64,000 bases of DNA. Source: an uncultured Latescibacterota bacterium (GTDB lineage Bacteria > Latescibacterota > UBA2968). The translations under genes were made by a program, and so were the position numbers. Under the pieces are notes generated by a model. It saw only the letters and a program-made list of their open reading frames with translations. It searched no databases and was not told the origin of the DNA. Positions 28,250 to 49,590 of the stretch are shown in pieces (position 1 is the first letter of the stretch; each line of letters starts with the position of its first letter). The stretch lies in assembly GCA_951812755.1 (NCBI GenBank), contig OX638329.1, positions 2,982,522 through 3,046,521 of the forward strand, written 5' to 3'.

Positions 28250-31200
28250 CTACCTCCAGAATTTGGCAATCCTCATTGCTTGGCTGATCATTTCGTCCAT
28301 TTGTTCCGAAGATAAATCAATGCCATGTATGTCTTCCACCACATCGTAGAAGAAATCATCAATCTCGTTTTTTACGACATTTTGCGCGTCGCTATCGTTC
28401 CAAAAATCTACCTTCCAATTCCTTTCTATCGCGGTTTGAATGGCAAGCGTTGTTTTTATTGCTATGCCATCGGTCTGGCTTTCATCGATATCAATTTTTG
28501 AGAAACAGGGTTTAATTGCGCCAAAATATGCACAGGCTTCACGATTATTGCGAATCTCGTCGGGCACATCGTCGCGTTGAGAGCTTTCGACCTTATCGCG
28601 AATATCGCTCACCTTTTGCAGATAATCCAGGGCTAATATCCGTTGCTGCCTGAAATCGTCGATTGCCTCCTGAATGAGCTTTGAGAATTTCTCGTAAAAA
28701 GCAGGGTCTTTGTCCATGTTTTCGGTAATCTTGCGCTTGGTTGCATGCGCGATATGGTCGGCGTTTGCCGCTATATTTCGGGTGCGGTAGATGCCTCGCT
28801 CCTCTTTGACCACAGAAAAGGTGTTGTTATCAAAAATATCCACGGGATCGTTTAATTGGGTGACTTCGTTTGCCTGAATATGCGTGTTTAGCAACTTTTT
28901 AATTCGGGTGTCATAGTCGCCGTAATCAATGGCTTCGGCGTAGCGCAGTCTGACAGCCTGTCTCAGTTTCTCAAAACGCAAGAGATCGCTTTTGTAGCGT
29001 TTGAGTTGGGCCTCGTCGGTCTGCATAATGAACTGCTCAGATGAAAGCGCGATGGCAAGGGTTTTGCCGTATTCCGTGAGGCGTTCATAAAAATCTTCCC
29101 GCAATGCGTCATCGGATAGGAGGACTTCGTAGCGTTCTTCATCGCGGGAATTTTTAATTTCTTTGAATATATCCCAGAGGTCCGAGTAACGTTGCGGCAA
29201 TTTTTGTATTTCTTCCTGGATGGAGACCAGGACATTGGCGAGATCCGCTCTGTCAAAATCCGCAAGCGCGTCGTATTCGTTCAGTGCTTTGTCCAGTTCA
29301 CCCAATACATTGGCATAATCAACGACATAGCCAAATTCCTTATTTTCGTGTACGCGATTAACCCGGGCAATAGCCTGGAGCAATGTGTGTTCGCGCAACT
29401 TACGGCACAGATAGAGCACGGTATTGCGAGGCGCGTCAAATCCGGTGATGAGTTTATCTACTACAATCAAAATTTCCGGATCGTCCGCGTGTTTGAACTG
29501 TGCGATGATTTGTTTGTTGTATTGGTCTTCGGAACCATAACGAGCCATCATTTTGTTCCAGAACGCGTTGACCTCATCTGTTTCTTCGCCTACCTCTTCA
29601 TGCCCCTCTCGCGTATCCGGGGGAGAAATAACGACCTCCGATGAAATATCATTTATCTCATTGAAAAATTCTCGATACTTCAGGGCAGTCGCTTTGTTGG
29701 GTGCTACAAGTTGCGCCTTAAATGGGGTGTTCTGCCAGTTTACGCGGTAGTGTGTGCTTATGTCAAATGCGCGCATATAGACGACCTGGTCTGCCTGATT
29801 GAGTGCATCTGCACGGGAATATTTTCTTTTTAAGTCGGCTTTTTGTTGGTCTGTCAGGTTTACCGTATGGCGTTCGAACCACAAATCAACCGCGTTTTCG
29901 TTTTGCTCTATCTCTACATGCCGTCCTTCGTACAGTAGGGGAACCACTGCCTTGTCTTTGATCGCCTGTCGCACGGAATAGTGCGGTTCAATAAGACCTC
30001 CAAATCTAACAAAACTGTTCTTCTCTCTTTTGAGCAATGGCGTACCTGTGAAGCCGATGTAACAAGCATTGGGTAACATCTGCCTCATGCGCGCTGCGAG
30101 AGAACCGAAGTTTGTGCGGTGGCTTTCATCTACGAGGACGACAATATCCGCTGAATCATCAACGTATTTTTCAGCAGAAAGTGCCGTATCAAATTTATTG
30201 ATCAGCGTCGTGATGATACCCACTTTGTTTTTGATGTGTTTGACCAGATTTCGCCCGGTTGTCGCCCGCTCCATGTCCAGGCCACAGGCTGCGAAGGTGT
30301 TGCCCAGTTGTTTATCCAGGTCTTTGCGGTCTGTAACGAGAATCATTCGGGATTTATTCAGTTCGGAGTTCAGAGCCAGAGTACGCGCGAGCATGACCAT
30401 TGTGATGGATTTCCCAGATCCCTGAGTGTGCCAGACAATGCCGCCCTGGCGGCGTCCTGTCTTGTCTATTTGTTTGATGCGATTTATTGCGGAACGAACG
30501 AGAAAGAACTGCTGGTATCGGGCTATTTTCTTACTGCCAAGGTCAAAGACGATAAAGCCGTAAATGAGTTCCAACAGACGCTCTGGACGGCACAGGCTGT
30601 AAAGACATCTATCCTGTTCCGTGAGCAGTCGGTCTCCTGTGCTTTCAAGCGCGGCGAAGTGCGATAGCGCCAGAGCAAAATCGCCGCGGAATAGGGCGTC
30701 TTTGTCTTCAGCGGAAAGGGTTTTATTGATGCTGGCATTCACTTCGTGAGCAGAATCCTCCATTTCGTCCCATAAGCTCCAGAATGCCTTTGAAGTTCCC
30801 ACCGTTGCGTACTTCGCCTCATTTTTGTTTATAGCCAGCAATATTTGTGCGTAAATGAAAAGGCGCGGGATATATTCTTCGCCCTGATTGCGGATTGTTT
30901 GAGATATGGCCTGCTCAACATCCACATCGGAGCCTTTGCATTCGATTACAACAAGGGGAATACCGTTCACGAATAGTATAATGTCGGGCCTTGCGGTTTC
31001 CAGGCTGCGGGTGCGTTCAACAGAAAATTCCGCTGTGGCGTGAAACACATTGTTCGCGGGATTTTTCCAGTCGATATAGTTCAGGGTATAACTTTTGGAA
31101 TCGCTCTCGATGGTTTGTTCAAGTGATGTGCCAAGCGTTATCAGGTCGTAGATTACTTCATTTGTTTTTTGCAGACCATCGTATTGGATATTTTTGATTT

Positions 31201-31438
31201 TCTGAATGGCAGATTGAATATTCTCCTCGCTGAATAGATACAGACCGCCTTTGTAGTGAATGCGGTTTATTTTTTTAAGCTGATCGCGCAAGATGTTTTC
31301 CAGCAGAACATTTGAGGCACGACCACCGCGTTCTACCATCGCCTGCTCGGGGGGCAGATACCGGTAGCCCATGTTAATTAGCTGTTGCAGGGCAGGTATC
31401 TGGGAGAGGTGTTTTTCGCTGAATGGGAAGGTAGGCAT
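28250..31438 (-). CDS. hsdR: type I restriction endonuclease subunit R
   Basis: 1062 aa; helicase motifs ('HTQGSGKS', 'DESHR') and HsdR-like N-terminal nuclease region. Confidence 0.9.
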   Translation of the reverse strand: MPTFPFSEKHLSQIPALQQLINMGYRYLPPEQAMVERGGRASNVLLENILRDQLKKINRIHYKGGLYLFSEENIQSAIQKIKNIQYDGLQKTNEVIYDLITLGTSLEQTIESDSKSYTLNYIDWKNPANNVFHATAEFSVERTRSLETARPDIILFVNGIPLVVIECKGSDVDVEQAISQTIRNQGEEYIPRLFIYAQILLAINKNEAKYATVGTSKAFWSLWDEMEDSAHEVNASINKTLSAEDKDALFRGDFALALSHFAALESTGDRLLTEQDRCLYSLCRPERLLELIYGFIVFDLGSKKIARYQQFFLVRSAINRIKQIDKTGRRQGGIVWHTQGSGKSITMVMLARTLALNSELNKSRMILVTDRKDLDKQLGNTFAACGLDMERATTGRNLVKHIKNKVGIITTLINKFDTALSAEKYVDDSADIVVLVDESHRTNFGSLAARMRQMLPNACYIGFTGTPLLKREKNSFVRFGGLIEPHYSVRQAIKDKAVVPLLYEGRHVEIEQNENAVDLWFERHTVNLTDQQKADLKRKYSRADALNQADQVVYMRAFDISTHYRVNWQNTPFKAQLVAPNKATALKYREFFNEINDISSEVVISPPDTREGHEEVGEETDEVNAFWNKMMARYGSEDQYNKQIIAQFKHADDPEILIVVDKLITGFDAPRNTVLYLCRKLREHTLLQAIARVNRVHENKEFGYVVDYANVLGELDKALNEYDALADFDRADLANVLVSIQEEIQKLPQRYSDLWDIFKEIKNSRDEERYEVLLSDDALREDFYERLTEYGKTLAIALSSEQFIMQTDEAQLKRYKSDLLRFEKLRQAVRLRYAEAIDYGDYDTRIKKLLNTHIQANEVTQLNDPVDIFDNNTFSVVKEERGIYRTRNIAANADHIAHATKRKITENMDKDPAFYEKFSKLIQEAIDDFRQQRILALDYLQKVSDIRDKVESSQRDDVPDEIRNNREACAYFGAIKPCFSKIDIDESQTDGIAIKTTLAIQTAIERNWKVDFWNDSDAQNVVKNEIDDFFYDVVEDIHGIDLSSEQMDEMISQAMRIAKFWR

Positions 31439-31455
31439 TGCATTGTTCCTGTTTT

Positions 31456-31514
31456 ATCCGCAGATGAATATTATCCGCATATGAACGCAGATATTCGCAG
31501 ATAGAGGCAGATAA
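31456..31514. repeat. cluster of CGCAGAT-type motifs in the hsdR upstream region
   Basis: 'CGCAGAT' at 31459, 31486, 31496 and GGCAGAT at 31506 (10-bp spacing for the last three), CGCATAT at 31476. Confidence 0.4.
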
Positions 31515-32018
31515 AATTCTTGTGAAGCTGGAAGATTACGAGCTTATGACTCTGGTCTCTGATTCATCTCGCTTTGGCTGCATCTCCGTTTTCTTACACG
31601 ACTTCTCAATCATTATCGGTCGCTGGCCTATTGCCTTCTAATTGCTGAAAGCAATTTTTGTTGGGGTTGCATATTTAAGAATGTATGCGAGTTTTCGCAA
31701 ATTTCTGCTTTCCAACTCTTTTTTTGTAAACAGTACAAAAAATACTATAAATTCGTCACAGTCGATATATCCCGTGATTTCTTGACAAGGTAACTGATCC
31801 GAAGTCACTACTCTAATATATGTATTTCTTTTATCGGTTCTTTTAGCAATACTTCGGACAGTTTTTAGGTGTAAAGGTTCTTTGAAATCAACAGGTTAGA
31901 TGAGACCCCATGTTTTATTTACAAGTTAGCCCTATACCCTGAGTTTGATAAAAAAACTGACAATTCTATAAACCGTTGTATTATAGAAACTTAGGGTTTT
32001 TGACTAATTGGAAACCTA

Positions 32019-32129
32019 TCAAAAAGTGTCCGAACCATTGTTGGTGTTCAATCCATTTTTAAATTCCATAAATTCACCAAGCTGAACTTCCCGCCATCCC
32101 TTCGGCAACTGCCCATTTTTCACTGTCAT
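32019..32129 (-). pseudogene. orphan N-terminal fragment of an hsdS specificity-subunit gene
   Basis: 'MTVKNGQLPKGWREVQLGEFMEFKNGLN' matches the conserved HsdS N-terminus, then stop; followed by about 500 bp of AT-rich ORF-free DNA. Confidence 0.4.
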
Positions 32130-32166
32130 TCTATTATCCCCTGTTGAACTGTGCAGTACTTCTGGC

Positions 32167-32388
32167 TCACCAACTCTTTCCTTGCAGTTCCTTCGGGAAG
32201 AGCTTGCGGCTGGAGAGCCGGTCTTCATCTAAAACGTGAATAAGGTATTCGAGAGTTTTCCGCTGTTCGTCAGTATCGCCCTCATCCATCCATGACTGGA
32301 CCAACTGCACAAGACCGGCTGCACGGTCATCAGAAGTTTTGCTTTCACTGACAATCTCGGTAGGATTTTCTGAAAGCCTTTTATCCAT
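32167..32388 (-). CDS. hypothetical small acidic protein
   Basis: 73-aa ORF inside the R-M island; no recognisable motif. Confidence 0.2.
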   Translation of the reverse strand: MDKRLSENPTEIVSESKTSDDRAAGLVQLVQSWMDEGDTDEQRKTLEYLIHVLDEDRLSSRKLFPKELQGKSW

Positions 32389-32427
32389 ATCTCTGTCCTC
32401 TCATCTCATCGCTTTTGCCCTCCTGCT

Positions 32428-32775
32428 TTATGTCTTGACCGCCTGCAATTTCTCTGTTTCAGAAATCTCGCATTGTGGCGCGGGCAGTTGGGTGATGATG
32501 TTCGCAATCAGCGTCTCGTCCTTGTTTGACATGGCATTCGCCACATCTTGAGGATTGCTATGCGTCTTTCGCGCAAATTCTCGCGCACCGCCTTGTCCTT
32601 CAACAGCCGCACTGAATCCGTAATAAAGCGCGGCACCATCCGGATCTTTTTCGTGCTCTTCCAATAAGACTTCAAGGAAGGAGAGAGCTTTATCGATATC
32701 CGAAAACTTTTCGATTAAGTAGTCGCGGAAATCTATCATCTGTCTCATCGTTGGGTCTCCTTGTAATTTTGCCAA
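32428..32775 (-). CDS. addiction-module antidote protein (HTH antitoxin)
   Basis: 115 aa; 'AALYYGFSAAVEGQGGAREFARKTHSNPQDVANAMS' antidote-like; directly downstream of and overlapping the toxin gene. Confidence 0.55.
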   Translation of the reverse strand: MAKLQGDPTMRQMIDFRDYLIEKFSDIDKALSFLEVLLEEHEKDPDGAALYYGFSAAVEGQGGAREFARKTHSNPQDVANAMSNKDETLIANIITQLPAPQCEISETEKLQAVKT

Positions 32776-33080
32776 TAGGTTTTTGCGCGTTCAATGTCTC
32801 GCGTTTGGGAAGACTTATCGCCGCCGCAGAGCAACAGGACGATGGTGTTGCCGACTATACCAAAATAGATGCGATAGCCTGCTCCAAAATGGAAACGGGT
32901 TTCAAAAATACCGTCACCGACAGATTTCCAGTCGCCAAAATTGCCGCCCGCAAGACGACCAAGGCGTGCTTGAATCCGGTCCTGCGTTTTTTGATCGCGT
33001 GACTCAAACCATTCGGTGAAAGGCACTCGCCCATTTGAATGCTGGTAAATTTGCAGTTTTCTCGGTTGCGTAGCAAGCAT
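32745..33080 (-). CDS. RelE/ParE-family toxin (addiction-module killer type)
   Basis: 'FHFGAGYRIYFGIVGNTIVLLLCGGDKSSQTRDIERAK' matches the killer-protein C-terminus. Confidence 0.6.
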   Translation of the reverse strand: MLATQPRKLQIYQHSNGRVPFTEWFESRDQKTQDRIQARLGRLAGGNFGDWKSVGDGIFETRFHFGAGYRIYFGIVGNTIVLLLCGGDKSSQTRDIERAKTYWQNYKETQR

Positions 33081-33116
33081 TCTCTATCTGCCCTTTGCCT
33101 GACTCATGGTGCAATT

Positions 33117-33485
33117 TTAGGTCTCGACTGCCTGCAATTTCTCGGTCTCTGTTTCAGATGTCTCGCATTGCGTCGCGGGCAGTTGGGCGATGATGTTCGC
33201 AATCAGCGTCTCGTCTTTGTTTGACATGGCCTGCGCCACGCCTTGAGGATTGCAATGCGTCTTTCGGGCAAATTCTCGCGCACCGCCCTGTCCTTCAACA
33301 GCCGCACTGAATCCGTAATAAAGCGCGGCACTATTCCCGTCTTTTTGGTATTCTTCCAATTCCGTTTGAAGATAGGAGATGGCCTCCTCAAAGTCAGAAA
33401 GCCCTTCGATTAAGTAGTCGCGATAATTTCTCATTTCTCTCATCGTTAGGTCTCCTTGTAGTTTTACCAATAGGTTTTTGCGCAT
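33117..33485 (-). CDS. addiction-module antidote protein, second paralog (orphan)
   Basis: 122 aa, near-identical core to 32428..32775. Confidence 0.55.
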   Translation of the reverse strand: MRKNLLVKLQGDLTMREMRNYRDYLIEGLSDFEEAISYLQTELEEYQKDGNSAALYYGFSAAVEGQGGAREFARKTHCNPQGVAQAMSNKDETLIANIIAQLPATQCETSETETEKLQAVET

Positions 33486-33551
33486 TCAATGTCCCGTGCC
33501 TGCGAAGATTTGTCGCCGCCGCAGAGCAGGAGGACGATTGTGGCATCTGTA
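33486..33551 (-). pseudogene. 3' remnant of a duplicated RelE/ParE-like toxin gene
   Basis: Encodes only '...TIVLLLCGGDKSSQARDIECAKTYW*'; 5' part replaced by repeat copy B. Confidence 0.45.
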
Positions 33552-33568
33552 AATATCTTTTGATTTAG

Positions 33569-33630
33569 CCTTTCATCTGCGTCTATCTGCGAAAAACGCT
33601 CAAATTATTCGCGTTTTTTTCTGCGGATTC
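33569..33630. repeat. dispersed intergenic repeat, copy B (inverted relative to copy A)
   Basis: Reverse complement nearly identical to 12563-12625; supplies the last codons and stop of the RhuM-like gene. Confidence 0.6.
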
Positions 33631-34658
33631 CGACCCAATTGTCGTTCCAATTCTTTAGTTTCTCTATCAAAATCAGATTCAAACAAACGATCCTGAACAA
33701 TTCGGTATTTCTCAAACTCGCTTTCGGCATGGGCTTTGGCAATCTCGGCACTGACTTGTCCGCTGTCTTTCAATATCTGCCGGTCAAAAGCCTCGAGAAA
33801 TATATCGAGGCGTTTTGCCCAGTCCTCCATTGTCATGGGTATCTTGCGCTGTGCCCGGTCTTCGGCGAGGTCAATATAGGCGTTGACGATACGCCCAAGA
33901 GATTCCAGTTCTTCTTTCGACAGGTAGTTCTTTGCGACAGAGACATCAGACTTCAGGATTTTGCCGGTTGGGGCTTTCTCCCAGGTGGCAAGCCCCATGT
34001 GCCGCTGACCGCTATCTGCCCGCTGTTGTATAAATTCCGCCGTAGTATGGCCGTGAATAGCATAATGCAGTTTGTTTTGCACTCTGGCGAAAAACTCGCG
34101 GGTGGTCGGCGCGTCCCTGTTATAATCCATGCTGGTGGTGTAAATGTCGGCGATCTTTTGGTAAAACCGCCGTTCGCTCAGACGAATCTCGCGGATTTCT
34201 TCCAGCAACCGCTCAAAATAGTCCTCGCCGAGAAACGCGCCATTTTCCAACCGCTGCTTATCCAGAACATAGCCTTTGATCGCAAACTCCCGTAAAACCC
34301 GGGTTGCCCATTGGCGAAATTGCGTGGCGCGTCTGGAGTTTACCCGATAACCGACCGAGATGATGGCGTCCAGATTGTAAAAATTGGTAGTGTAGTTTTT
34401 GCCATCAGCGGCAGTATGTGCAAAACTTGCACATACTGAATCCTGGTCTAACTCGTTGTCATTAAAGATATTTTGCAAGTGCTTTGTAATAACTGAGCGA
34501 TCCACGGAAAATAACTCCGCCATGAGTTTTTGTGTCAGCCAAATGGTGTCGTCCTGGTAACGCACTTCAATACTATCTTCACTGGCCTGGTTGGTAAAGA
34601 TCAAAAATTCCGCTGTGCTGCTGCGGATAGTCAGATCTTTTGAGGATCTCTTGCTCAT
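33600..34658 (-). CDS. RhuM-family (Fic/DOC-related) protein
   Basis: 352 aa; 'DAIISVGYRVNSRRATQFRQWATRVL' is characteristic of RhuM; 4-bp overlap with hsdM. Confidence 0.65.
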   Translation of the reverse strand: MSKRSSKDLTIRSSTAEFLIFTNQASEDSIEVRYQDDTIWLTQKLMAELFSVDRSVITKHLQNIFNDNELDQDSVCASFAHTAADGKNYTTNFYNLDAIISVGYRVNSRRATQFRQWATRVLREFAIKGYVLDKQRLENGAFLGEDYFERLLEEIREIRLSERRFYQKIADIYTTSMDYNRDAPTTREFFARVQNKLHYAIHGHTTAEFIQQRADSGQRHMGLATWEKAPTGKILKSDVSVAKNYLSKEELESLGRIVNAYIDLAEDRAQRKIPMTMEDWAKRLDIFLEAFDRQILKDSGQVSAEIAKAHAESEFEKYRIVQDRLFESDFDRETKELERQLGRNPQKKTRII

Positions 34659-36169
34659 GCTCGTTTTACTCCCTCCATTAATCTCCCTATCTCTCCCCGT
34701 ACTACGATTAACTCCTCTTCCAGTCGGTCTATCTCAAGCTGCACTGCATCAATATCAATCTCCTCTTCTTCTTCAAAGGTATCTACATAGCGAGGAATGT
34801 TTAAATTGAAGTCGTTTTCTTCAATTTCTTCAAAGGTGGCGAGGTGGGCGTATTTGTCTATATCCTGGCGTTTTTTATAAGCGGTGGTGATTTTTTCAAT
34901 GTGCTCGTCCAGCAATGCATTTTGATTTTTCCCGGCCTGATATTCGCGGCTTGCATCAATGAACAAGACATCTTTGCGGTTCTCATTTGCTCCCCCTTGT
35001 TCTCGCGAGCGGTCAAAGACCAAGATGGCGACTGGTATTGAGGTCGTGGGGAACAGATTGCCCGGCAAGCCAATGACGACGTCGAGCAAGTTTTCTTCAA
35101 TGAGTTGCTGGCGAATGCGTCCTTCGGCACCACCCCGGAACAAAACACCGTGAGGGACCACAACAGAAACCCGGCCTTGTTTTTCCAAAGCCGCTTCCAC
35201 CATGTGGCTGATAAACGCATAGTCGCCTTTGGATTTGGGAGGCAAACTGCGCCAGAAGCGGTTGTATATGTCTGCCTCGGCGTCTTCCGCGCCCCACTTG
35301 TTAAGTGAAAACGGGGGATTGGCGACTACATTGTCGAATTTCATCAACCGATCGGATTCCACCAGTGCCGGGGCAGTGAGCGTGTTGCACCATTCAATGC
35401 GGGCTGCATCGGCACCGTTTAGAAACATATTCATACGCGCCAATGCCCAGGTGCTGCCGTTCACTTCCATTCCGTAAAGGGCGTGGTTTTTGTCGCCCAC
35501 TACGCGCGCGGCTTCAATGAGAAGACCAGCGGAACCGCAGGCGGGATCACAGATACGGGCGCCGGGTTTGGGCGCGCACAGTTTTGCCACCAGTTCGGAT
35601 ACCTTGTGTGGCGTGTAGAACTCGCCGGCTTTTTTGCCCGCGTCAGATGCGAAGCGTTCAATCAGGTAGATGTAGGTGTTGCCGATCACATCTTCCGAAA
35701 CCCGTCTGGGACTCATATTCAATTCGGGTTTGTTGAAATCTTCCAGCAGTGTTTTTAGACGGCGGTTGCGGTCTCTGGTCCTGCCGAGACTTGTCTCGCT
35801 GTTGAAATCTATATTTCGGAAAACACCTTCCAATTTCTGTTTGTTTTCCGTTTCAACCGCCTCCAGTGCGATGTTGATGAGTTCACCGATATTGGGAGCA
35901 GAGCGCTGTTCATAAAGGTTGTAAAAACTACTGCCATCCGGCAATACAAAACGCTCATTCCTCAGCCTGCGCCTGATGCGTTCATCGTTATCGCCGTATC
36001 GTTTTTTATATTCCTCGTAGTGGTCCTTCCAGACATCGGAAATGTATTTTAGAAACAGCATTACGAGGATGTAGTCCTTATATCCGGCTGCATCCATCAC
36101 GCCGCGAAAGGTGTCGCAGGCAGCCCAGGCAGCGTTGTTGATGTCTTTTTGTTGGATTTGACTGTTCAT
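34655..36169 (-). CDS. hsdM: type I restriction-modification DNA methyltransferase subunit M
   Basis: 504 aa; 'ICDPACGSAGLLIEA' SAM-binding motif and 'NPPF' catalytic motif. Confidence 0.9.
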   Translation of the reverse strand: MNSQIQQKDINNAAWAACDTFRGVMDAAGYKDYILVMLFLKYISDVWKDHYEEYKKRYGDNDERIRRRLRNERFVLPDGSSFYNLYEQRSAPNIGELINIALEAVETENKQKLEGVFRNIDFNSETSLGRTRDRNRRLKTLLEDFNKPELNMSPRRVSEDVIGNTYIYLIERFASDAGKKAGEFYTPHKVSELVAKLCAPKPGARICDPACGSAGLLIEAARVVGDKNHALYGMEVNGSTWALARMNMFLNGADAARIEWCNTLTAPALVESDRLMKFDNVVANPPFSLNKWGAEDAEADIYNRFWRSLPPKSKGDYAFISHMVEAALEKQGRVSVVVPHGVLFRGGAEGRIRQQLIEENLLDVVIGLPGNLFPTTSIPVAILVFDRSREQGGANENRKDVLFIDASREYQAGKNQNALLDEHIEKITTAYKKRQDIDKYAHLATFEEIEENDFNLNIPRYVDTFEEEEEIDIDAVQLEIDRLEEELIVVRGEIGRLMEGVKRA

Positions 36170-36186
36170 ATTTTGTTACTCCATTA

Positions 36187-36492
36187 TTAACGATCACCAC
36201 AGGGTGGATTATATCGATTCCGCAGTTCTGTCTCGATAATAGTACGGTCATCTGAATTACAGTAATAAGCCGCGTAACTCTGATAGGGATAACCTACCGA
36301 TTTCCAACAGTATTTCCGTTCATGATTTTCTACGCGTTTCTTCACATCCTCCGATTCACCTATATCAACAGGCGTCCAGAGTTGATGTATCGTGCGCCGC
36401 CCTAAAATGGCATACACTCCGGATTCATTTCTAAGATCGGATGTATCATCAAGAGGACCTTCAAAGCTGTAACGTCCTATTCCAATAGTCAT
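36187..36492 (-). CDS. small GIY-YIG-like nuclease-domain protein, tentative
   Basis: 'GVYAILG...VDIGESEDVKKRVENHER...E...N' fits GIY/YIG/R/E/N spacing; start set to internal Met 36492. Confidence 0.35.
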   Translation of the reverse strand: MTIGIGRYSFEGPLDDTSDLRNESGVYAILGRRTIHQLWTPVDIGESEDVKKRVENHERKYCWKSVGYPYQSYAAYYCNSDDRTIIETELRNRYNPPCGDR

Positions 36493-36688
36493 GTCAATAA
36501 CTCCTATTTTATAGGGGTGATTTAAGGATGCGAATAAAGAGTAGAAATCATGGCACAATGACAAACAAAACCTTTCTGGATTGCGGCTAAAAACGTGCCG
36601 CAATGACAGGTGCTATTCCCATCGTCACGCCTGCATGCCTTAAGCAGGCGTCCAGAATAGGGAAGGTGCTCTGAACTCTTTAATGGCA

Positions 36689-37270
36689 TTAAGGTTTTTC
36701 AGATTCATTTAACAATCGCATCTGAATTGTTTTGACCAGTTTTTCCTTTTGCTCTGCCAAATTTTTCATCAGCCTTTGTTCCTTATTTAACAAATCGGCA
36801 AGGGCGACGATTTGTTCTTGTATTTCCAGATTGGGGAGAGGGATTTCCAGAGCATCAAGAGCGGATTTGCCTATCATGGTCATTATCGTTCCGGTCGCCC
36901 TGCTGTGTAAAAATGCTTGTGATGAGGATAGGTTGATACACCAACAAAGATATTCCGGTAGAACATTTTTGCTTGTGACGCGGATCAAGAATAGCGGGGC
37001 CGAGACAACCGTCCGTCCGGGTTCCTTATCAATGATTGTCGCCGTAGTAGTTTTGCCTCGGGAGCGGAAAACCAAATCTTTGCATTCGACCAGATGGCGC
37101 TCATTGATGCCGTTTATATTAATGGTCATTAGGTTGCCATAATCCAATTTATCTTCGATTAGATCGCGCATCTGAATGACAGCCACATTCCCATCTGCTT
37201 CCGGCTCAATACGGGAACGAAAGGAGAGGCCCATCTGAACAAGAGCGATGTCTTTGAGCTTGTATTTCAT
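36689..37270 (-). CDS. hsdS: type I R-M specificity subunit S, short single-TRD form
   Basis: C-terminal 'LPNLEIQEQIVALADLLNKEQRLMKNLAEQKEKL' is the conserved HsdS coiled-coil; about 193 aa from ATG 37270. Confidence 0.75.
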   Translation of the reverse strand: MKYKLKDIALVQMGLSFRSRIEPEADGNVAVIQMRDLIEDKLDYGNLMTININGINERHLVECKDLVFRSRGKTTTATIIDKEPGRTVVSAPLFLIRVTSKNVLPEYLCWCINLSSSQAFLHSRATGTIMTMIGKSALDALEIPLPNLEIQEQIVALADLLNKEQRLMKNLAEQKEKLVKTIQMRLLNESEKP

Positions 37271-37414
37271 AATTACTGGTAAAATATAAAAGTTGCCAGT
37301 TGTGGGAGAAATTATATTACAGAAAAGCCTTTCCTGCAATATAAAGAAAAAAATTCCACTCTGTCAAGTGAAAGTCTTCATTTAGCCGCGAATTGGCGTC
37401 CTGTTCAGATCCCT

Positions 37415-37735: not shown

Positions 37736-37760
37736 ATTATTCGCGTTTTTTTCTGCGGAT
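37734..37760. repeat. right half of repeat copy C
   Basis: 'CAGATTATTCGCGTTTTTTTCTGCGGAT' contributes '...IRRKKRE*' and the stop of the sulfatase gene. Confidence 0.5.
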
Positions 37761-39449
37761 CAGCATCACGCGCCGCACATCCATTACCTGTGAATTGGAT
37801 ACGTCAAGGGCGCGCAAGGTCAGGGTTCCTCTACCCGCGTTTAGCTGGATTGTTCCCAGTGTCAATGGCTCGAAATCCTTTACATAAGACTCGCCTCCAC
37901 GCGGATAGCGGTCATCCGCTGCGCCGATTTGTGGTGGGTCGTGTGCGTCGGTTACCTGTCCTTGCACTTTTGTTGCTTGACCTTGCGCGGGGTGAAATGC
38001 CAACTCGACGGTTGATCCCACATCTTCTTCTGGGCAGGTATAATAAACCGCCGCTTCATAATCGCCCGTTGTGCCGACCTCAATATCCCAGGTCATCCGA
38101 TCACCAACTTGTGTCCAGTGCGTAAAATAAGAACAGTTGGGCGCGCCGGCACTGCGCTGGACTGTGCCGTGATGCACCCCGTCTCGTGCGGGCAAGCGAG
38201 TCGTTTTCCAGTAGCCTGTGGCAAAGGGACGGTCGTCGTTGACGGGCAAGACTTCGGCGTGGAATTTTGCTGTTGCATCTGATAATTCCGCATGGACATC
38301 AGGGTATTCTTGCGATACATCTGTTGTCTGTCCACCATCGGCGCCCATATCGTATAACTTGCCCTCTATGTCCAATCGGAATCGCTGATTGCGCGCGCTC
38401 AATTGCGCCCGCTGATGTGACAAGATGATGCGGTCAGACCATTCGACATCTTCGCCCAATAGCAGGGGTTTGAGGCTGCGACCATCCAGCGGCTTTTCAA
38501 CTTTCAGGTCGATATCCGCAAGGTCGGCAAATGTGGGCAATAAATCAATCGCTCCGGCGATTTCTTCAATGACTGTACCAGCCTGGATATGCCCTTTCCA
38601 GCGCATCAAGCCCGCCACGCGCACGCCGCCTTCATCTGTTGATCCTTTTGTGCCTTTCATCCCGCCATTCCAGCGCGCGCCATTGGGACCATTATCTCCA
38701 AAATAAAATACAATGGTATCTTCCGCGATTTCCAACTCATCGAGTTTGTCCAGCAATCGCCCCACGTTCCAATCGATATTTTCGCATAGAGCCAGTGCCG
38801 CCCGCGTGCGTTCTATCTCTTCTTGATTGGGGTTGGTCGCCAGCATCTCAATCGGTTTATCGCGGAATGGATCGTAAAATCGGTCGGGCACCTGAAATGG
38901 GGTGTGCGGGATATTGTAGGGAAGATAACAGAAGAACGGTTGATCCCGTTCGACATTTGCCGCCATAAAATCCATGGCGCGATCTGTACACTCATCGGGT
39001 AAGTATCCCTTTCCTCGCGTGAGTTCGCCATTGTGTTCGAGTTCGGCATCGAAATATTGCCCCCAGTGTCCGGAACAGAACCCAAAAAACTCGTCAAATC
39101 CCCGCGCGTTCGGATGATAGGGATGCTGCGTGCCATTGTGCCACTTGCCATAAGCTCCCGTGGCGTATCCGGCGGCTTTGAACACATCGGCAATGGTTGT
39201 TTCATCGAGGTTCAGTCGTTCGGCGCCGGTGCTTACGCCGTGGACACCGCCGCGCAGATGATAGCGACCCGTCAAAAACTCTGCCCGCGTGGGCGCGCAT
39301 ACCGGGCAGACGTAAAACCGGTCGAATAGGGCGCCATCTCGTGCGAGAGAATCCACATTGGGTGTGTTGAGATTTGTATTGCCGTGTACACTCAAATCGC
39401 CCCAACCCTGATCGTCGGTCAAGATCACGAGAATATTTGGTCTGGTCAT
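37737..39449 (-). CDS. sulfatase
   Basis: '[15 protein letters not shown]' formylglycine motif; 'LTDDQGWGD' N-terminus; ~150-aa C-terminal extension. Confidence 0.85.
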
Positions 39450-40795
39450 TGGGTCTCCTTTTTTAAGGCGTCATATTCCGGATTCACACACTGATCTCCC
39501 CGCTGTTCCAGCACCAACCGCAAGCCGATTTCGGGTTCGGGATATTGGCCCTGGTCATCGGTCTGTGCAATCCACTGTGTTAGAATATCGCGGTGGTATT
39601 GCAAGGCTTCGGCATGGTCTGGGTCATCTACGAGGTTGTTCACCTCATCGGGGTCGGCGTCACAATCGTAAAATTCTTCTGCGATGCGTTCTTCTGCCCA
39701 GAAAAATGCCTGCTCGGGCGTCAGTTCGCCGTTGGCGTTCATGGTTCGCAGCAGTTCCATATAATCCGATCCATCGCGGTACTGTGCCTGCATAAAGGGA
39801 CGATCGGTCATAAAGTTGCGCACATAGCGATACCGCTGGGTACGCACCGTGCGCATGCGATCTATTGTGAAATCACAGCGGTCTTTTGCGGCAATTACAT
39901 AGTCGCGTTCGACAAAATGTTCGCCAAACAGATTTTGGCCTTCCATGTAATCGGGTACACCGAGGCCAGCGAGCGCGAGTGAGGTGGGACCGATGTCAAT
40001 GCCGCTGACGAGGTCGGAGCGCACGTTTCCGGGTGTTACGATATCTGTATTGCCCTGCCAGGAAATCATCAATGGGATTTTGTGCCCGCCTTCGTAAATA
40101 AATTGCTTGTGCCGCGGCAACCGCATCCCGTGATCGCTAAATAAAAATATAATCGTATTTTCGCGCAATCCATCTTCTTTCAGTCGCTCCAAAATCCATC
40201 CCACCTGTCGGTCTGTGTGCGAGATACAATCGTAGTGCAGGGCAATTTCTCTGCGGATGATTTCGTGGTCGGGATAGAACGATGGCACGGGTACCGAGGC
40301 GGGATCGATGCCCGGACCTTTGAGCAATCCAATGCTTTTGCCACCTCGAAGCTGAATTTGTCCGAAGAACGGTTGGTCAGGGGGACATCCGGACCAATCG
40401 CTTCCATCTTTTGCCCCTTTGAAATCCATGCTCCCATGGTGGTTAAATAAAACATCTAAATCAAAGACAAAATTGTAATGCGTTTTGCCCTCGTTAAATG
40501 TGTAATATCCGGCGTCTCGAAAATACTCGGGTATTGTTTTTATCCCTTCGGGTAAAATGGGGTATGAACTGTTGTGGTTGTGCGCGCCTATGGTGGTTTG
40601 ATACATCCCGGTAATCGTTGCCGAGCGCGAAGGCGAGCACACGCCAGAGGTTTGATATGCCCGATCAAATTTTACGCCCGAAGCAGCGAGCGCGTCTATA
40701 TTGGGCGTTTGTATGGTCTGGTCGCCGTAACAACTCATCCACGGGTTCATATCTTCGAGAAAAAGCCAGAGAACATTCGGACGGGGGTTCGACAT
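39446..40795 (-). CDS. sulfatase
   Basis: '[11 protein letters not shown]' motif; 4-bp overlap with the downstream sulfatase. Confidence 0.85.
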
Positions 40796-40813: not shown

Positions 40814-41776
40814 TTACTCAGTTCGATAATTGAGCTTGAGCCATTCTGGTGGGCCGTATAGCAGTGGTTTTTCGTTCCAGGTAAATAGCGGTTCTATGTC
40901 TCGCAAAATATCGTCGAGGGCTTCGTGATCGTACGCATCTTGAGTTGGGAAACGGGTTGTCAAGCGGCTGTGCGCGCTCTTGATTACCTGGCGGCGGCGC
41001 AGTATTTCGGGATAATTGGTGCCTTTTAATGTTTCGAGCGCGAATAGGGGAGCCATGATGCCATATACCCGTTTTGCCTCTTTCAAATCTCCAGCTTCCA
41101 GGGCATTCCACAGGCGCACCACGACATCTGTTATGTGACAGCCGGGCATTTGTCCGGCCACGCCGCGCGGATGTTCGAGCAGTAAATAGCGGCCACTGGC
41201 GCCACCAAATACGCCCTTCAATTTTGGCCCGGCCTGTTCGATTAAGCCCGTAGCCATGTGCGTTGGAGGGAAGACCTCTTCCTTGACGTATTCTATGTGT
41301 TCTACTTCATTGATCAAGCGCACCACTGTGTCGATTGATAGCTCGCTACCCCGCGTGTGATTTTGTATAAAAATTGGCATATCCACTTCGCGGTCTATTG
41401 CTTGATAATAGTGTACCATCGCATCTTCGTCTTCAATTGGCTCTATATAAGGGGCCATTGCTATGACGCCATCGGCTTCCAGTGCTTGCGCGTGGCGCGC
41501 GAACATCGTCGCGTGGTTACTACTCGCCCCCTGAACGCCGAGAATGACGGGAATGCGTCCGGCGGTGTGTTCTACGACCATCTGCATCCCGTGCATGCGT
41601 TCCCGGTCGGTCAATACGGGAAAACTACTGGCATTTACGGGCCAGACAATTCCGTGCGCGCCACAGGTGATACAAAAATCCAGCACGCGTTTGAGGTCGC
41701 CCCAATCGACATCTCCATTTTGCTTAAAAGGCGTTGAGGGAATGGTGAATACCCCGCGAAATGTATCAGAACTCAT
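40814..41776 (-). CDS. dihydrodipicolinate synthase / N-acetylneuraminate lyase family protein
   Basis: TIM-barrel DapA-like; start ATG 41776 with AGGAGA RBS; upstream extension rejected (terminator inside). Confidence 0.75.
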   Translation of the reverse strand: MSSDTFRGVFTIPSTPFKQNGDVDWGDLKRVLDFCITCGAHGIVWPVNASSFPVLTDRERMHGMQMVVEHTAGRIPVILGVQGASSNHATMFARHAQALEADGVIAMAPYIEPIEDEDAMVHYYQAIDREVDMPIFIQNHTRGSELSIDTVVRLINEVEHIEYVKEEVFPPTHMATGLIEQAGPKLKGVFGGASGRYLLLEHPRGVAGQMPGCHITDVVVRLWNALEAGDLKEAKRVYGIMAPLFALETLKGTNYPEILRRRQVIKSAHSRLTTRFPTQDAYDHEALDDILRDIEPLFTWNEKPLLYGPPEWLKLNYRTE

Positions 41777-41852
41777 GTTGTCTCCTTTTTTAAACACTAT
41801 TGCAGAACAATATGCAGAAATAGAAAATAAGTTATGAAATTTTATCTCCAAA

Positions 41853-41889
41853 CAAAAAATCCCGCCATTGCTTTGTACAAGAGCGGGAT
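41853..41889 (-). terminator. rho-independent terminator after the AAA+ gene
   Basis: On the minus strand, stem ATCCCGC/GCGGGAT followed by TTTTTTG. Confidence 0.4.
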
Positions 41890-41909
41890 ATCATTCCAAT
41901 TTCTCAACT

Positions 41910-41935
41910 GTTTCTATCCGATGTTTCTATCCGAT
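41910..41935. repeat. tandem duplication GTTTCTATCCGAT x2 spanning the AAA+ gene stop
   Basis: Two exact 13-bp copies at 41910-41922 and 41923-41935. Confidence 0.5.
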
Positions 41936-42790
41936 CAACTCGGGCAAATGCGCGGGCAGCAACTCATCGCCGTCACAGTTCACGACGGCCTCATCGATCA
42001 CTCGGCAGAGTTCGGCGGCATTCCTCGGCCAATGATACGCGCCCAACTTTTCCAAAACCCCATTGGAAATCCTCGGAACACTTCGACCATCTCGCTCCGC
42101 ACGTCCTTCAGCGAAATATTGCGCCAGAACGGGGATATCCTCTTTCTGATCTCTCAGCGTATGTGTTTCAACCACGCATACTCGGAGTTGATCGTATAAA
42201 TCTGCGCGAAATCTTCCGGCTTTCACTTCTTTGCTCAAGTCCCGATTTGTAGCCACCATGATGCGAACATCTGCATACACAGGCTGTACCCCGTTCACGC
42301 GGGTATAATAGCCATCGGTCAAATAACTGTGCAAACGATATTGCGTTTCTGGTGCCATGATATTTACCGCATCCAAAAACACCGTACCACCCTGCGCCAG
42401 TTCCAGCAAGCCGCGCTTGGCAATGCCCAAAAACCCGCCATCTTCTACTCCGAAAATCTCTGCTTCATTGTGTTCAACAGATATTTCACAAAAATGTTCT
42501 AAAAACGGATGGTCTGCACGCCGGCTAAATGAATGAATGCTTTTTGCTGTATATGCTTTCCCTGTGCCGGTTTCTCCATAGATAAGCACGGGGGAGGCTG
42601 TACGCGCGACTTCCCGAACCCGCGCTCGCAACTGTTTGGCAGCCTCGCTCTCTCCCACAATCTCCATCTTCGGAATATGCCCACCCACTGTTCTTTGAGG
42701 CGCGAGTGCATCCAGCATGGCCTCGGCTTCTTCGACGTTTACTTTGTCTTCCTGTAACATCGTCAACACCTTGCGTCTATTTGCAGACAT
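41927..42790 (-). CDS. sigma-54-interaction-domain AAA+ ATPase lacking a C-terminal DNA-binding domain
   Basis: Walker A 'GETGTGKAY', Walker B 'GTVFLDAV'; GAFTGA position reads 'GGFLGIAKRG'; ends after the AAA+ lid; AGGAGG RBS. Confidence 0.65.
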   Translation of the reverse strand: MSANRRKVLTMLQEDKVNVEEAEAMLDALAPQRTVGGHIPKMEIVGESEAAKQLRARVREVARTASPVLIYGETGTGKAYTAKSIHSFSRRADHPFLEHFCEISVEHNEAEIFGVEDGGFLGIAKRGLLELAQGGTVFLDAVNIMAPETQYRLHSYLTDGYYTRVNGVQPVYADVRIMVATNRDLSKEVKAGRFRADLYDQLRVCVVETHTLRDQKEDIPVLAQYFAEGRAERDGRSVPRISNGVLEKLGAYHWPRNAAELCRVIDEAVVNCDGDELLPAHLPELIG

Positions 42791-42886
42791 ACGAACCTCC
42801 TGTTAAAGACTTAAAAGCAACCACCGATGAACACAGAGGAAAAGGCGAATAGGCAACGATCAGTTTTCAGTAGTCAGCATACTGTC

Positions 42887-43246
42887 CTATAATCCCCGCA
42901 ACTGTGCAATCGCCTCCTGGGGGCTTAATTCGCCGCAATCTACGGCATCCAAAATTGTTCGCTGATTCAGGCGTTTCTCCACGGCGGGATACCCGAGGGC
43001 CTGCACGACCTCTTCCAGTCGCTTGCGCACAGTGGGATACGAAATCTTCAGTTCTTTTTCCATTTCTTTGATATTGCCTCGGGCGAGCAAAAATGCCTCA
43101 ATAAACTGTTGATGTGCATCCGTTAGCAGTGCCAAACGCGATACGGGCAATTCGCCCTCCACGACAATGTGACAGGATGAACACCGCAGCTTAACAGGCT
43201 CCATCGTGCCATTGCACACTGGACAATGGGGTATTGAACGTCTCAT
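42887..43246 (-). CDS. DUF2089-like zinc-ribbon/HTH protein, tentative
   Basis: 'CPVCNGTM...CSSCH' zinc ribbon then a helical HTH-like region; AGGAGG RBS; start set to internal Met 43246. Confidence 0.45.
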   Translation of the reverse strand: MRRSIPHCPVCNGTMEPVKLRCSSCHIVVEGELPVSRLALLTDAHQQFIEAFLLARGNIKEMEKELKISYPTVRKRLEEVVQALGYPAVEKRLNQRTILDAVDCGELSPQEAIAQLRGL

Positions 43247-43406
43247 AATACCTCCTTTCAATATGTTATTTTAAAAAATATGACTAATAAATTCAAATAT
43301 GTCAATAATAAAAATAACTATATATGCAAAAATGTTATTATAATTTAAAATATCGTATATTTATGTTTCAAAAATTAAGTGCAAATCCCGTCTCGTTGGA
43401 CAATAT

Positions 43407-43477
43407 TGGGCGTAAATTATGGTTGTTTATTCCAAAATTTGGCGTAAATTATGGAATTAAAGTCCATATTTTACGCC
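43407..43477. promoter_or_regulatory. three copies of a 14-bp motif GGCGTAAATTATGG (two direct, one inverted), candidate regulator site
   Basis: Copies at 43409-43422, 43441-43454 and inverted CCATATTTTACGCC at 43464-43477, in the divergent region before the ATPase gene. Confidence 0.4.
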
Positions 43478-43492
43478 GAAAGAGGTGGTCAT

Positions 43493-44746
43493 GTGAAAAA
43501 TAGAACCCTATTTTCTTTTATAAAACAAAAATCCGCCTCCAGATTGGGGCGGCTCATTGCTTTGACAGGTGCGCGACAAACGGGCAAGACCACACTGGTA
43601 CAAACGGGATTTTCCGACTATTCATACATTTCTCTCGATGATCCGATCACTCGTCCGGATTTTACAGCACTTTCGGCTGCACAGTGGTATCAACAGTATC
43701 CAAATGTCATTCTGGACGAAGTGCAAAAAGCACCTGCGATTATAGAGTCTATCAAAGCCGTTTACGATCAGTATCCCGATGCTCGCAGTATCTTACTCGG
43801 TTCCAGCCAAATCTTGTTAATGGAACAGATCCGCGAAAGTTTGGCCGGGCGTATCTCCCTTATTGAACTGTATCCTCTCACATTGCCGGAAATGCTGACA
43901 GATTCCTGGGATGACACCATTGTGGATTCCAGATTTATCCATTTTCTTAAAACAGGTGAACGCGATATTTTGTATTCGGGTATGCCACTCCAGAGCGAAC
44001 GCTATGCACAAGTGGCACATCACCTGGCACATTATATGAATTTTGGTGCTATGCCAGCCGTCGTTGATCCCTTGCTTACCATCCCTGATAAATACGATTG
44101 GTTGCACGACTATATCCAAACCTATCTTCAGTGCGACTTGCGCGATCTCGCCAATTTGCGCGATCTCACTCCGTTTGCTCGCATGCAACGCGCATTGGCG
44201 GGGCTGACTGGCGTATTGCTCAATATGAATGAATTGGCTCAACTTACCGGCGTCACATCCAAGACTGTCAAACGCTTTATCTCATATCTCGAAATAAGCT
44301 ACCAGGTCATATTGTTACAACCGTGGTTTCGCAATCTGAACAAACGTCTGTCCAAAGCGCCAAAAGTTCATTTTCTCGATCCTGGCATCCAGCGTGCGTT
44401 ACTCAATCGACGCGGTCAACCCACAGGCCATGAATTTGAAAGTGCTATTATTGCTGAAATTTACAAACAAATTCAAAATAGCCGGTTGCCCATTGATTGT
44501 TATCATCTGCGCACGGCAGATGGACGCGAAGTCGATTTGCTGCTCGAAACTGAACGGGGCTTTGTGCCTATCGAAATAAAAATGGCGGAACGCATTTCTT
44601 TTACAGACGCCCGCCATTTGCGCAAACTCGACGAAATTTTAGACAAACCCATTCTGCAGGGACTGGTGCTCTCCAATGACCCTCGCATTCACGATCTGGG
44701 CAATGACATTGTGGCACTACCTGTGGGTTGGGCACTTGGCGCGTAA
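43493..44746 (+). CDS. AAA-type ATPase with DUF4143-like C-terminal domain
   Basis: Walker A 'GARQTGKTTL'; start set to GTG 43493 because the motif array covers ATG 43451. Confidence 0.65.
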   Translation: MKNRTLFSFIKQKSASRLGRLIALTGARQTGKTTLVQTGFSDYSYISLDDPITRPDFTALSAAQWYQQYPNVILDEVQKAPAIIESIKAVYDQYPDARSILLGSSQILLMEQIRESLAGRISLIELYPLTLPEMLTDSWDDTIVDSRFIHFLKTGERDILYSGMPLQSERYAQVAHHLAHYMNFGAMPAVVDPLLTIPDKYDWLHDYIQTYLQCDLRDLANLRDLTPFARMQRALAGLTGVLLNMNELAQLTGVTSKTVKRFISYLEISYQVILLQPWFRNLNKRLSKAPKVHFLDPGIQRALLNRRGQPTGHEFESAIIAEIYKQIQNSRLPIDCYHLRTADGREVDLLLETERGFVPIEIKMAERISFTDARHLRKLDEILDKPILQGLVLSNDPRIHDLGNDIVALPVGWALGA

Positions 44747-49353: not shown

Positions 49354-49423
49354 TTTGCTCTCAAATAGGATGTGTCTGGTATCTGTTCAACCCTTGATAG
49401 AATCCTCAAGGGCAGGTTCTTTT

Positions 49424-49497
49424 GCTCCCGTAGCTCAGCTGGATAGAGCAACTGCCTTCTAAGCAGTAGGTCGCAGGTTCGAGCCCTGCCGGGAGTG
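49424..49497 (+). tRNA. tRNA-Arg (anticodon TCT)
   Basis: Hand-folded cloverleaf: acceptor GCTCCCG/CGGGAGT, anticodon loop CTTCTAA, T-loop TTCGAGC. Confidence 0.85.
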
Positions 49498-49512
49498 TTT
49501 TGCGTTTGGTGT

Positions 49513-49590
49513 GGTGGGTGTAGCTCAGTCGGTTAGAGCGCCTGGTTGTGGCCCAGGAGGTCGGGGGTTCAAATCCCCTCACTCACCCCA
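49513..49590 (+). tRNA. tRNA-His (anticodon GTG), with G-1 and encoded CCA
   Basis: Acceptor GTGGGTG/CACTCAC, extra 5' G opposite discriminator C, anticodon loop TTGTGGC, T-loop TTCAAAT, 3' CCA. Confidence 0.85.

Follow-up and report, generated by a model that had tools for sequence, protein, structure and literature searches.

We analysed a pair of adjacent genes, encoding a DUF2089 protein and a sigma54-type AAA+ protein, on the minus strand of a stretch of 64,000 nt (the window) from an uncultured Latescibacterota bacterium (GenBank assembly GCA_951812755.1, contig OX638329.1, positions 2,982,522 to 3,046,521). We suggest, placing about equal weight on its being right and on its being wrong, that the pair is a two-subunit, sigma54-independent regulator, in which a nucleotide-binding, non-hydrolysing AAA+ subunit would be docked to the DUF2089 protein by the helical hairpins that both proteins carry. 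The DUF2089 protein, with its Zn-ribbon and LuxR/sigma region-4-like helix-turn-helix (HTH), would be the DNA-binding subunit of this bicistronic module, and the AAA+ protein, with a core probably derived from a bacterial enhancer-binding protein (bEBP), would be the subunit for signalling and assembly. Pairs (dyads) of a DUF2089 gene and a partner gene are already known from comparative genomics; the AAA+ core as the cargo of the partner is the new part.

In the proposed mechanism, the C-terminal SHOCT-like hairpin of the DUF2089 protein would dock onto the N-terminal hairpin of the AAA+ protein, as suggested by the homology of the two hairpins, and a nucleotide-dependent ring or oligomer could gather several DUF2089 subunits on arrays of sites, with three 14-nt repeats upstream of the pair's own promoter as the candidate sites. 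The outcome might be activation or repression at sigma70-type promoters, as in the case of TyrR, NtrX, and Rhodobacter capsulatus NtrC. The bEBP homologues without the GAFTGA motif act at sigma70 promoters, some of them without the need of ATP hydrolysis (PMC10274813, PMC3162934).

Domain anatomy and the ATPase site

The DUF2089 gene (42887-43246, minus strand, as are all features of the pair) is an open reading frame (ORF) of 119 aa with Pfam matches to PF22747 and PF09862; its ATG start is at 43246, with GGAGG 7 nt upstream. The Zn-ribbon (residues 8-37, 43136-43225; PF22747, 1.2e-7) has cysteines at positions 8, 11, 22, and 25, of which C11, C22, and C25 do not vary among 32 DUF2089 homologues, with C8 kept in at least 90% of these, and the AlphaFold2 model places short strands at 19-21 and 28-30. 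The HTH (residues 41-86, 42989-43126) matches PF09862 (DUF2089-HTH, 3.4e-24) and is modelled as three helices (43-54, 59-66, and 70-83). Its LuxR/GerE/sigma region-4-like character was suggested by a weak profile match to GerE (E 0.008) and by the best Foldseek matches of the DUF2089 protein, which are HTH domains of the LuxR/GerE/sigma region-4 type, every one with E >0.04; the structure and fold searches detected no solved structure of a DUF2089 relative. The protein ends with a SHOCT-like helical hairpin (residues 89-118, 42893-42982), detected as two modelled helices (89-103 and 109-118) and by hhalign. The mean predicted local distance difference test score (pLDDT) of the monomer model, built with the alignment of the 32 homologues, is 81.5.

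The SHOCT-AAA+ gene (41927-42790) encodes the bEBP-derived partner of 287 aa and has its own GGAGG upstream of the start. The AlphaFold2 monomer model shows a canonical AAA+ core, with a mean pLDDT of 89.9. The N-terminal SHOCT-like hairpin (residues 3-29, 42704-42784; helices 3-13 and 19-29) matches PF22746 (SHOCT-like_DUF2089-C) over residues 5-30 with 25.6 bits when the whole protein is scanned; a scan restricted to residues 1-36 raises the score to 30.2 bits, which exceeds the cut-off of 27. It is followed by a linker of about 18 residues (30-47) with low model confidence (pLDDT 58-69 at residues 21-40), by the Sigma54_activat-type AAA+ domain (residues 44-207, 42170-42661; PF00158, 5.5e-42, covering 167 of 168 profile positions; 8.6e-45 against ZraR 1ojl and 7.9e-42 against NtrC1 1ny6), and by the AAA+ lid (AAA_lid_14, residues 213-285, 41936-42154; PF25601, 1.4e-15). 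The Pfam scan detected neither a sensory domain nor HTH_8 in the AAA+ protein: the chain stops 2 residues past the lid, where the aligned canonical bEBPs run on into HTH_8. The original prediction, made from the sequence alone, had described a Zn-ribbon/HTH gene paired with a sigma54-type AAA+ gene without an HTH, and the ORF and Pfam data confirm both genes at their places and the absence of the HTH.

The same prediction had pointed to a resemblance between the N-terminus of the AAA+ protein and the C-terminus of the DUF2089 protein. We found this resemblance to be beyond chance, since a profile of 19 AAA+ N-termini aligned with a profile of 32 DUF2089 C-termini over 25 columns (hhalign 93.5%, P 2.4e-7). 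The presence of a homologous hairpin on both proteins makes it a plausible docking device.

The residues of the ATPase site were mapped by HMMER alignments to ZraR (1ojl) and NtrC1 (1ny6, 3m0e), and positions were counted in the NtrC1 numbering of PMC3841738. Walker A (GETGTGK, residues 72-78, 42557-42577) is intact in the alignment to both proteins, and so is the sensor I asparagine, Asn182 (NtrC1 N280). The predicted replacement of GAFTGA was confirmed: GGFLGI (residues 118-123, 42422-42439) aligns exactly at the GAFTGA loop (L1) of ZraR and NtrC1, and after it two residues are deleted. In GAFTGA, F and T are essential (PMC3162934). The claim that both Walker motifs are present holds for Walker A and for the aspartate of Walker B (VFLDA, residues 137-141, 42368-42382), but the catalytic glutamate of Walker B is replaced by Ala141 (NtrC1 E239). 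The arginine finger is lost, with Gln201 (42188-42190) at the position of NtrC1 R299 in the 1ny6 alignment, and Ala259 (42014-42016) stands in place of the sensor-II arginine, NtrC1 R357 (GNVREL against RNAAEL). Both the role of E239 and the naming of R299 as the arginine finger follow PMC3841738.

As GAFTGA and the three catalytic residues are gone, the AAA+ protein is not to be read as a sigma54 activator. Judged by its residues, it is a P-loop-only derivative of the bEBP core, beyond a mere GAFTGA variant. Most likely, a nucleotide (ATP or another) is still bound but no longer hydrolysed, and sigma54 can no longer be engaged. By the type of its AAA+ domain it would be placed with the bEBPs, but the loss of GAFTGA, of the catalytic residues, and of the HTH would place it outside the functional ones. 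All 25 listed NCBIfam matches of the protein are far under their cut-offs, the best being NtrX with 187.8 bits against 600. In public records, members of the family are annotated either as "sigma 54-interacting transcriptional regulator" or as "DNA-binding NtrC family response regulator"; the proteins so labelled have neither a receiver nor a DNA-binding domain, and those of the window's clade are also without GAFTGA, so the sigma-54/NtrC-family label is almost certainly wrong for this clade. An anti-phage defence system was considered and rejected: the similarity of the AAA+ protein to the CARF_AAA_HTH models of PADLOC (RtcR/PspF-type) is confined to the AAA+ core (profile positions about 165-408), and the DUF2089 protein matched none of the PADLOC models.

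Several known systems resemble the window pair in part. TyrR, DhaR, HupR, VpsR, NtrX, and the NtrC proteins of R. capsulatus and Caulobacter share with it an AAA+ domain of the bEBP clade in which the L1 loop is destroyed or deleted, and the expected sigma54-independent function, some of them relying on ATP binding over hydrolysis. In these proteins a single chain combines an N-terminal sensory or receiver domain, the AAA+ domain, and a C-terminal HTH, whereas the window protein has a SHOCT-like hairpin, a separate HTH protein, and a lost arginine finger and sensor II. Helicobacter pylori FlgR, Chlamydia CtcC, and Rhodobacter sphaeroides FleT activate sigma54 from solution. Like the window protein, they end after the AAA+ lid and have no HTH_8; unlike them, the window protein is without GAFTGA and the three catalytic residues. 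All three are listed with the sigma54-dependent enhancer-binding proteins (PMC3162934).

Dependence of a minimal AAA+ core on a separately encoded partner is also found in PspF-PspA and HrpR/HrpS-HrpV, where a partner protein acts in trans on the bEBP AAA+ core. The AAA+ proteins of these systems (PspF, HrpR/S) hydrolyse ATP and carry an HTH in the same chain, while PspA and HrpV are inhibitors without DNA-binding domains, and neither system has the SHOCT-like hairpin of the window pair. The Walker B substitution itself has an engineered counterpart, the hydrolysis-dead NtrC1 E239A (PDB 3m0e), with FLDA for FLDE at the same position, in which ATP-bound subunits were found in a heptamer ring (PMC3841738). 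That variant carries one engineered change in a complete activator, whereas the change in the window protein is natural, and GAFTGA, the arginine finger, and sensor II are lost as well.

Co-occurrence and motif erosion in the family

In every distinct locus (16 of 16) the SHOCT-AAA+ gene is immediately preceded by a DUF2089 gene; the source labels of these loci are Latescibacteria, Poribacteria, Handelsmanbacteria, and Gemmatimonadetes (at least four candidate phyla). As a control, 80 metagenome loci retrieved by generic Walker-A/L1 patterns, all of them with ordinary bEBPs, were inspected, and none holds a DUF2089 gene or a SHOCT-like ORF. The association was reached from both sides. Starting from the AAA+ gene, a same-strand DUF2089 gene of 119-134 aa was present immediately upstream every time, and on one 986-nt contig (L174) the 22 codons before the AAA+ gene are a DUF2089 C-terminus. 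Starting from DUF2089, the AAA+ gene was found as the next downstream gene at five genome loci (L011-L015), and likewise in the look-ups of P0205, from a metagenome-assembled genome (MAG) labelled Gemmatimonadetes and found in 89 blocks of the collection index, and of P0151. The intergenic gap is as short as 12 nt (L006), and in L172 the genes overlap by 4 nt. In the near-identical locus L011 (OX638317.1, a 5.9-Mb MAG of uncultured Latescibacteria), the DUF2089 protein is 100% and the AAA+ protein 97% identical to those of the window. The co-conservation that the original prediction had named as a check is thereby borne out.

A second check concerned the possibility that the AAA+ gene is a truncated pseudogene. 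The protein search returned full-length relatives of 285-297 aa (41-67% identity) that share the architecture, as well as one of 417 aa extended by a C-terminal domain; their source labels are Latescibacteria, Handelsmanbacteria, and Poribacteria. The AAA+ protein thus belongs to a conserved family of intact proteins (285-300 aa) and is no truncated pseudogene. Among the best 150 matches of an exhaustive profile search against 1.84 billion representatives, long multi-AAA proteins predominated, and only about ten clusters at 50% identity had the complete architecture (285-350 aa), a lower bound; the family is thus small.

Motifs were compared in 28 aligned family members and two more translated members. 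Walker A (GExGTGK) is invariant in all of these, and the other motifs were lost to different extents among the 28: GAFTGA is retained in 16 (in one as RAFTGA), the Walker-B glutamate in 9, the arginine finger in 10, and the sensor-II arginine in 14. The invariance of Walker A, with the catalytic residues lost in varied combinations, points to selection for binding over hydrolysis. Only four members (P0262, P0265, P0266, and L012) retain all motifs, and these may act as two-piece sigma54 activators. The window's clade (P0001-P0008 and L011) has lost everything but the P-loop, and its former GAFTGA loop reads GGPGGD in most members. The loop varies even among near-identical proteins, being GGFLGI in the window, GGSLGI in P0001 (99% identity; F120S), and DGALGI in L011 (97%), and it contains three of the eight differences between the window protein and its L011 counterpart. 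This variation could reflect neutral drift or diversifying selection.

The origin of the family is suggested by P0261 (L172, 4001-5047), which has a C-terminal Fis-type HTH_8 (9.6e-10) together with the N-terminal hairpin and the upstream DUF2089 gene, here with the 4-nt overlap. The retained HTH_8 points to descent from an ordinary bEBP, and P0261 looks like an evolutionary intermediate. Two variations of the architecture were also observed. At L002 (8001-9735), and also in L003 and L004, one DUF2089 gene is followed by two tandem SHOCT-AAA+ paralogues, the first of which in L002 keeps the arginine finger and the sensor-II arginine, the second being without even the Walker-B aspartate (LIGSI); by analogy, such paralogues may form a mixed ring reminiscent of HrpR/HrpS. 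The Poribacteria protein P0016 (L008, 6001-7254; 417 aa) has an extra C-terminal biotin/lipoyl-attachment domain.

The AAA+ proteins are one kind of partner in a wider DUF2089 dyad. We examined 75 DUF2089 loci of other organisms, mostly Bacillota, without finding an AAA+ gene next to any of them. Downstream ORFs were identified in 68, with a length of either 116-136 aa or 284-429 aa; the sampled long partners are Toastrack DUF4097 proteins (Bacillota, Spirochaete), and the short type is a small domain of about 125 aa. These partners begin with the same hairpin: PF22746 was detected on the sampled non-AAA partners (E 1e-8 to 1e-11), and a hidden Markov model of the first 32 residues of the AAA+ family matches 62 of the 68 partners at E<1e-3 and 67 of the 68 at E<0.05. 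The shared N-terminal hairpin reveals a common grammar, in which a Zn-ribbon, HTH, and hairpin protein is followed by a protein composed of a hairpin and a variable cargo, and the AAA+ core appears, from these comparisons, to be a new cargo swapped into the dyad.

Ravi et al. 2024 (PMC11237479) split DUF2089 into Zn-ribbon, HTH, and SHOCT-like parts and tied it to Toastrack contexts. The window pair shares with their dyad the Zn-ribbon, the DUF2089 HTH, the C-terminal SHOCT-like hairpin, and a next gene that starts with a hairpin. The known dyad occurs mainly in Bacillota and has as cargo Toastrack, LiaF-like, PspC, or another membrane-proximal domain, whereas the AAA+ type was detected in Latescibacteria, Poribacteria, and their relatives, and its cargo is a soluble sigma54-type AAA+ core with a lid in place of Toastrack or the domain of about 125 aa. 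As far as can be read from the two proteins, the pair agrees with the DUF2089 dyad in every structural feature except the type of cargo. An AAA+ partner of DUF2089 is not mentioned in PMC11237479 or in the other literature searched with 'DUF2089' and 'SHOCT-like', and the searched literature contained no experimental study of DUF2089 or of a member of either type of dyad.

The original prediction had proposed a split regulator with DNA binding supplied in trans. Since the pair is co-conserved and the AAA+ gene is no pseudogene, DNA binding in trans is a reasonable reading, with the shared hairpin as a plausible docking device. The fission of a once fused protein, however, is not supported, because no DUF2089-AAA+ fusion was detected among 114 DUF2089 homologues, and a swap of cargo describes the data better.

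Transcription unit and neighbouring genes

A sigma70-like promoter of the pair, TTGACA-17 nt-CATATT, was predicted at 43277-43305 (minus strand) by the consensus scan, and its -35 element TTGACA is invariant in six related loci despite diverged flanks. An intrinsic terminator with a 12-bp interrupted stem followed by UUUUUU was predicted at 41850-41889 (minus strand), after the stop of the AAA+ gene; the RNA fold of 41845-41930 has -23.8 kcal/mol with z -3.4. A simple terminator scan detected no terminator-like site. According to the predicted signals, the pair is a transcription unit of its own.

Three exact copies of CCATAWTTTACGCC are located about 100-170 nt upstream of the -35 element, at 43409-43422 and 43441-43454 on the minus strand and inverted at 43464-43477, and form a candidate operator or upstream activating sequence. 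They are arranged as an inverted pair with a third copy 32 nt away. Further exact copies were found neither elsewhere in the 64 kb nor in the compared loci, except for the near-identical L011. The same layout, an inverted pair and a third copy, was detected in L002 (7330-7405) with the diverged half-sites ATTTCACGCC and AGTTTACGGC. The 10-nt half-site has one occurrence within the first sulfatase gene (40669-40678) and another at 54255-54264, a frequency close to that expected by chance.

Upstream of the pair, between a BNR_4 gene and the DUF2089 operon, lies an ATPase gene with AAA_14 and DUF4143 (43451-44746, plus strand). It has no counterpart at this position in L001, L002, and L005, and matches the PADLOC candidate defence family PDC-S01 (1.1e-82).

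The scan for sigma54 promoters used TGGCAC-N5-TTGCW with GG and GC fixed and at most 2 mismatches, and covered the window and loci L001-L015 and L171-L174. No credible -24/-12 promoter was detected within 5-8 kb of the pair in the window or in the scanned family loci, and in the GAFTGA-positive L012 and L014 the two best -24/-12 matches are wrongly oriented or past gene ends. With at most 1 mismatch allowed, the family loci contain 3 sites in 131 kb, about a third of the density in the loci of generic bEBPs (25 of 80 loci; 397 kb). The window itself contains CGGCACAAATTTTGCA (54243-54258, minus strand), which deviates from the sigma54 -24/-12 consensus at one position. It lies in AT-rich intergenic DNA, 45 nt before the start codon (ATG, 54198) of a gene for a 304-aa protein, and an outer-membrane beta-barrel gene comes next; roughly estimated, chance alone would give about one such match in the window.

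Downstream of the pair are a DapA-like gene (40814-41851) and two sulfatase genes (39446-40795 and 37737-39449), all on the minus strand and identified as ORFs with Pfam matches. The pair had been placed at the head of a co-oriented sulfatase/DapA-like cluster, with sigma54 promoters to be looked for upstream of it. The co-orientation is correct, but the link is weak: the scan found no sigma54 promoter near the cluster, and these genes were rejected as part of the pair's operon because the intrinsic terminator after the AAA+ stop indicates that the pair is not co-transcribed with them. The downstream neighbours differ in L001, L006, L008, L172, and L175, while L002 again has sulfatase and dihydrodipicolinate synthase (DHDPS) genes nearby, and the synteny with the BNR_4 gene and the sulfatase genes is common to close relatives only. 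As the neighbours vary between loci, a link to sulfated-glycan catabolism remains a guess.

Other features were observed near the pair or its homologues. A type I restriction-modification region (28250-37339, minus strand) lies directly downstream of the sulfatase genes and comprises HsdR (28250-31438), HsdM (34655-36169), and HsdS (36689-37339), with a RhuM-family gene (33600-34658) inside. In the Poribacteria loci L012 (6919-7494) and L014 (6568-7143), a 191-aa ORF follows the AAA+ gene; the L012 copy, to which the identification applies, encodes HupE/UreJ of the nickel/cobalt transporter family. The genes for tRNA-Arg(TCT) and tRNA-His(GTG) are located at 49423-49590 (plus strand), and what looks like an ORF of 58 aa on the other strand is explained as an artefact of the two tRNA genes.

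Alternative explanations and significance

The sharpest alternative to the co-regulator is an antagonist: the AAA+ partner could hold the DUF2089 protein by the hairpin off the DNA, or mask it, until a signal such as the nucleotide state releases it. It would then be comparable to the anti-sigma and anti-activator partners and to the Toastrack partners thought to gate transcriptional output, the contexts of which Ravi et al. (PMC11237479) liken to the lia system. The co-occurrence and the hairpins are the same evidence for both models, and the interchangeable cargo (Toastrack, small domain, AAA+) fits a sensor or gate better than a fixed output role; a ring-forming AAA+ protein with an intact P-loop would, however, be an elaborate means to sequester a protein of 119 aa. 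The present data do not separate the antagonist from the co-regulator model; we consider the antagonist unlikely. The hairpins might also not pair with each other, and might instead tether the two proteins separately, to the inner side of the membrane or to a third factor shared by both. Such co-localisation would agree with the membrane anchoring proposed for SHOCT-like domains by Ravi et al. (PMC11237479) and with the classical SHOCT domain, which did not self-associate or oligomerise in the only published test (PMC3581485). Both hairpins are net acidic, calculated from the sequence, and binding to the anionic membrane is therefore not favoured; a membrane-anchored HTH protein would need a release step, and the strict one-to-one pairing of C-terminal with N-terminal hairpins is most simply explained by direct pairing, which makes co-localisation improbable.

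Two further explanations give the DUF2089 protein a lesser part or the AAA+ gene no function. The AAA+ core clearly belongs to the bEBP clade, bEBPs without a DNA-binding domain exist (PMC3162934), and the -24/-12-like match at 54243-54258 indicates that the organism may have sigma54, so that the AAA+ protein might be a sigma54 activator acting from solution like FlgR or CtcC, with DUF2089 as a mere neighbour. The replaced and shortened GAFTGA loop, the absence of the Walker-B glutamate, arginine finger, and sensor-II arginine, the lack of a sigma54 promoter in the scan around the pair, and the adjacency of DUF2089 in every one of the 16 loci make this highly improbable. The loss of four functional motifs and the HTH, and a former GAFTGA loop that drifts between copies of 97-99% identity, would also be expected if an ordinary enhancer-binding protein had been truncated and its remnant were decaying. 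Against such decay stand the intact ORFs of the same length and architecture in many lineages (40-67% identity), the invariant Walker A, the strongly conserved N-terminal hairpin, the gene's own ribosome-binding site, and the confident AlphaFold2 fold; we regard the conservation across lineages as refuting the remnant, and its probability as close to negligible.

Several results count against the docked, sigma54-independent regulator as well. The published behaviour and proposed membrane role of SHOCT domains, cited above, do not favour hairpin docking. The Pfam scan gave no match of PF22746 to the C-terminus of the window's DUF2089 protein, and the homology of the hairpins therefore rests on the profile-profile result. 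Several lineages retain a perfect GAFTGA on a site that lacks catalytic residues and should not hydrolyse ATP, which a simple story of decay after leaving sigma54 does not explain. The 14-nt repeats overlap the start of the divergent, inserted AAA_14/DUF4143 gene and could belong to that gene.

We also propose, more tentatively and as less likely than not, that the SHOCT-AAA+/DUF2089 proteins are a true two-polypeptide enhancer-binding protein family. In the intact members (P0262, P0265, P0266, and L012), DUF2089 would recognise the enhancer, perhaps also receive the regulatory input, and dock by the paired hairpins on a sigma54-remodelling ring, and the family would record, in one lineage after another, the transition from a motor to a pseudo-ATPase. 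The members that keep GAFTGA without hydrolysis would perhaps be sigma54-binding brakes, and the window's clade a fully sigma54-independent, nucleotide-sensing co-regulator. If this proposal is true, it would give the SHOCT-like hairpin its first defined function, heterotypic docking.

Two builds of enhancer-binding-protein-type regulators are known, the single chain with its own HTH and the activator that acts from solution without a DNA-binding domain. If the docked two-subunit regulator is correct, the pair would represent a third build, with the DNA-binding and AAA+ parts as separate proteins joined by a docking hairpin. The family forms a natural series from complete motors to P-loop-only pseudo-ATPases, useful for understanding the role of non-hydrolysing AAA+ rings in transcription, and it would provide a concrete and testable role for the SHOCT-like hairpin and DUF2089, both of which are widespread.

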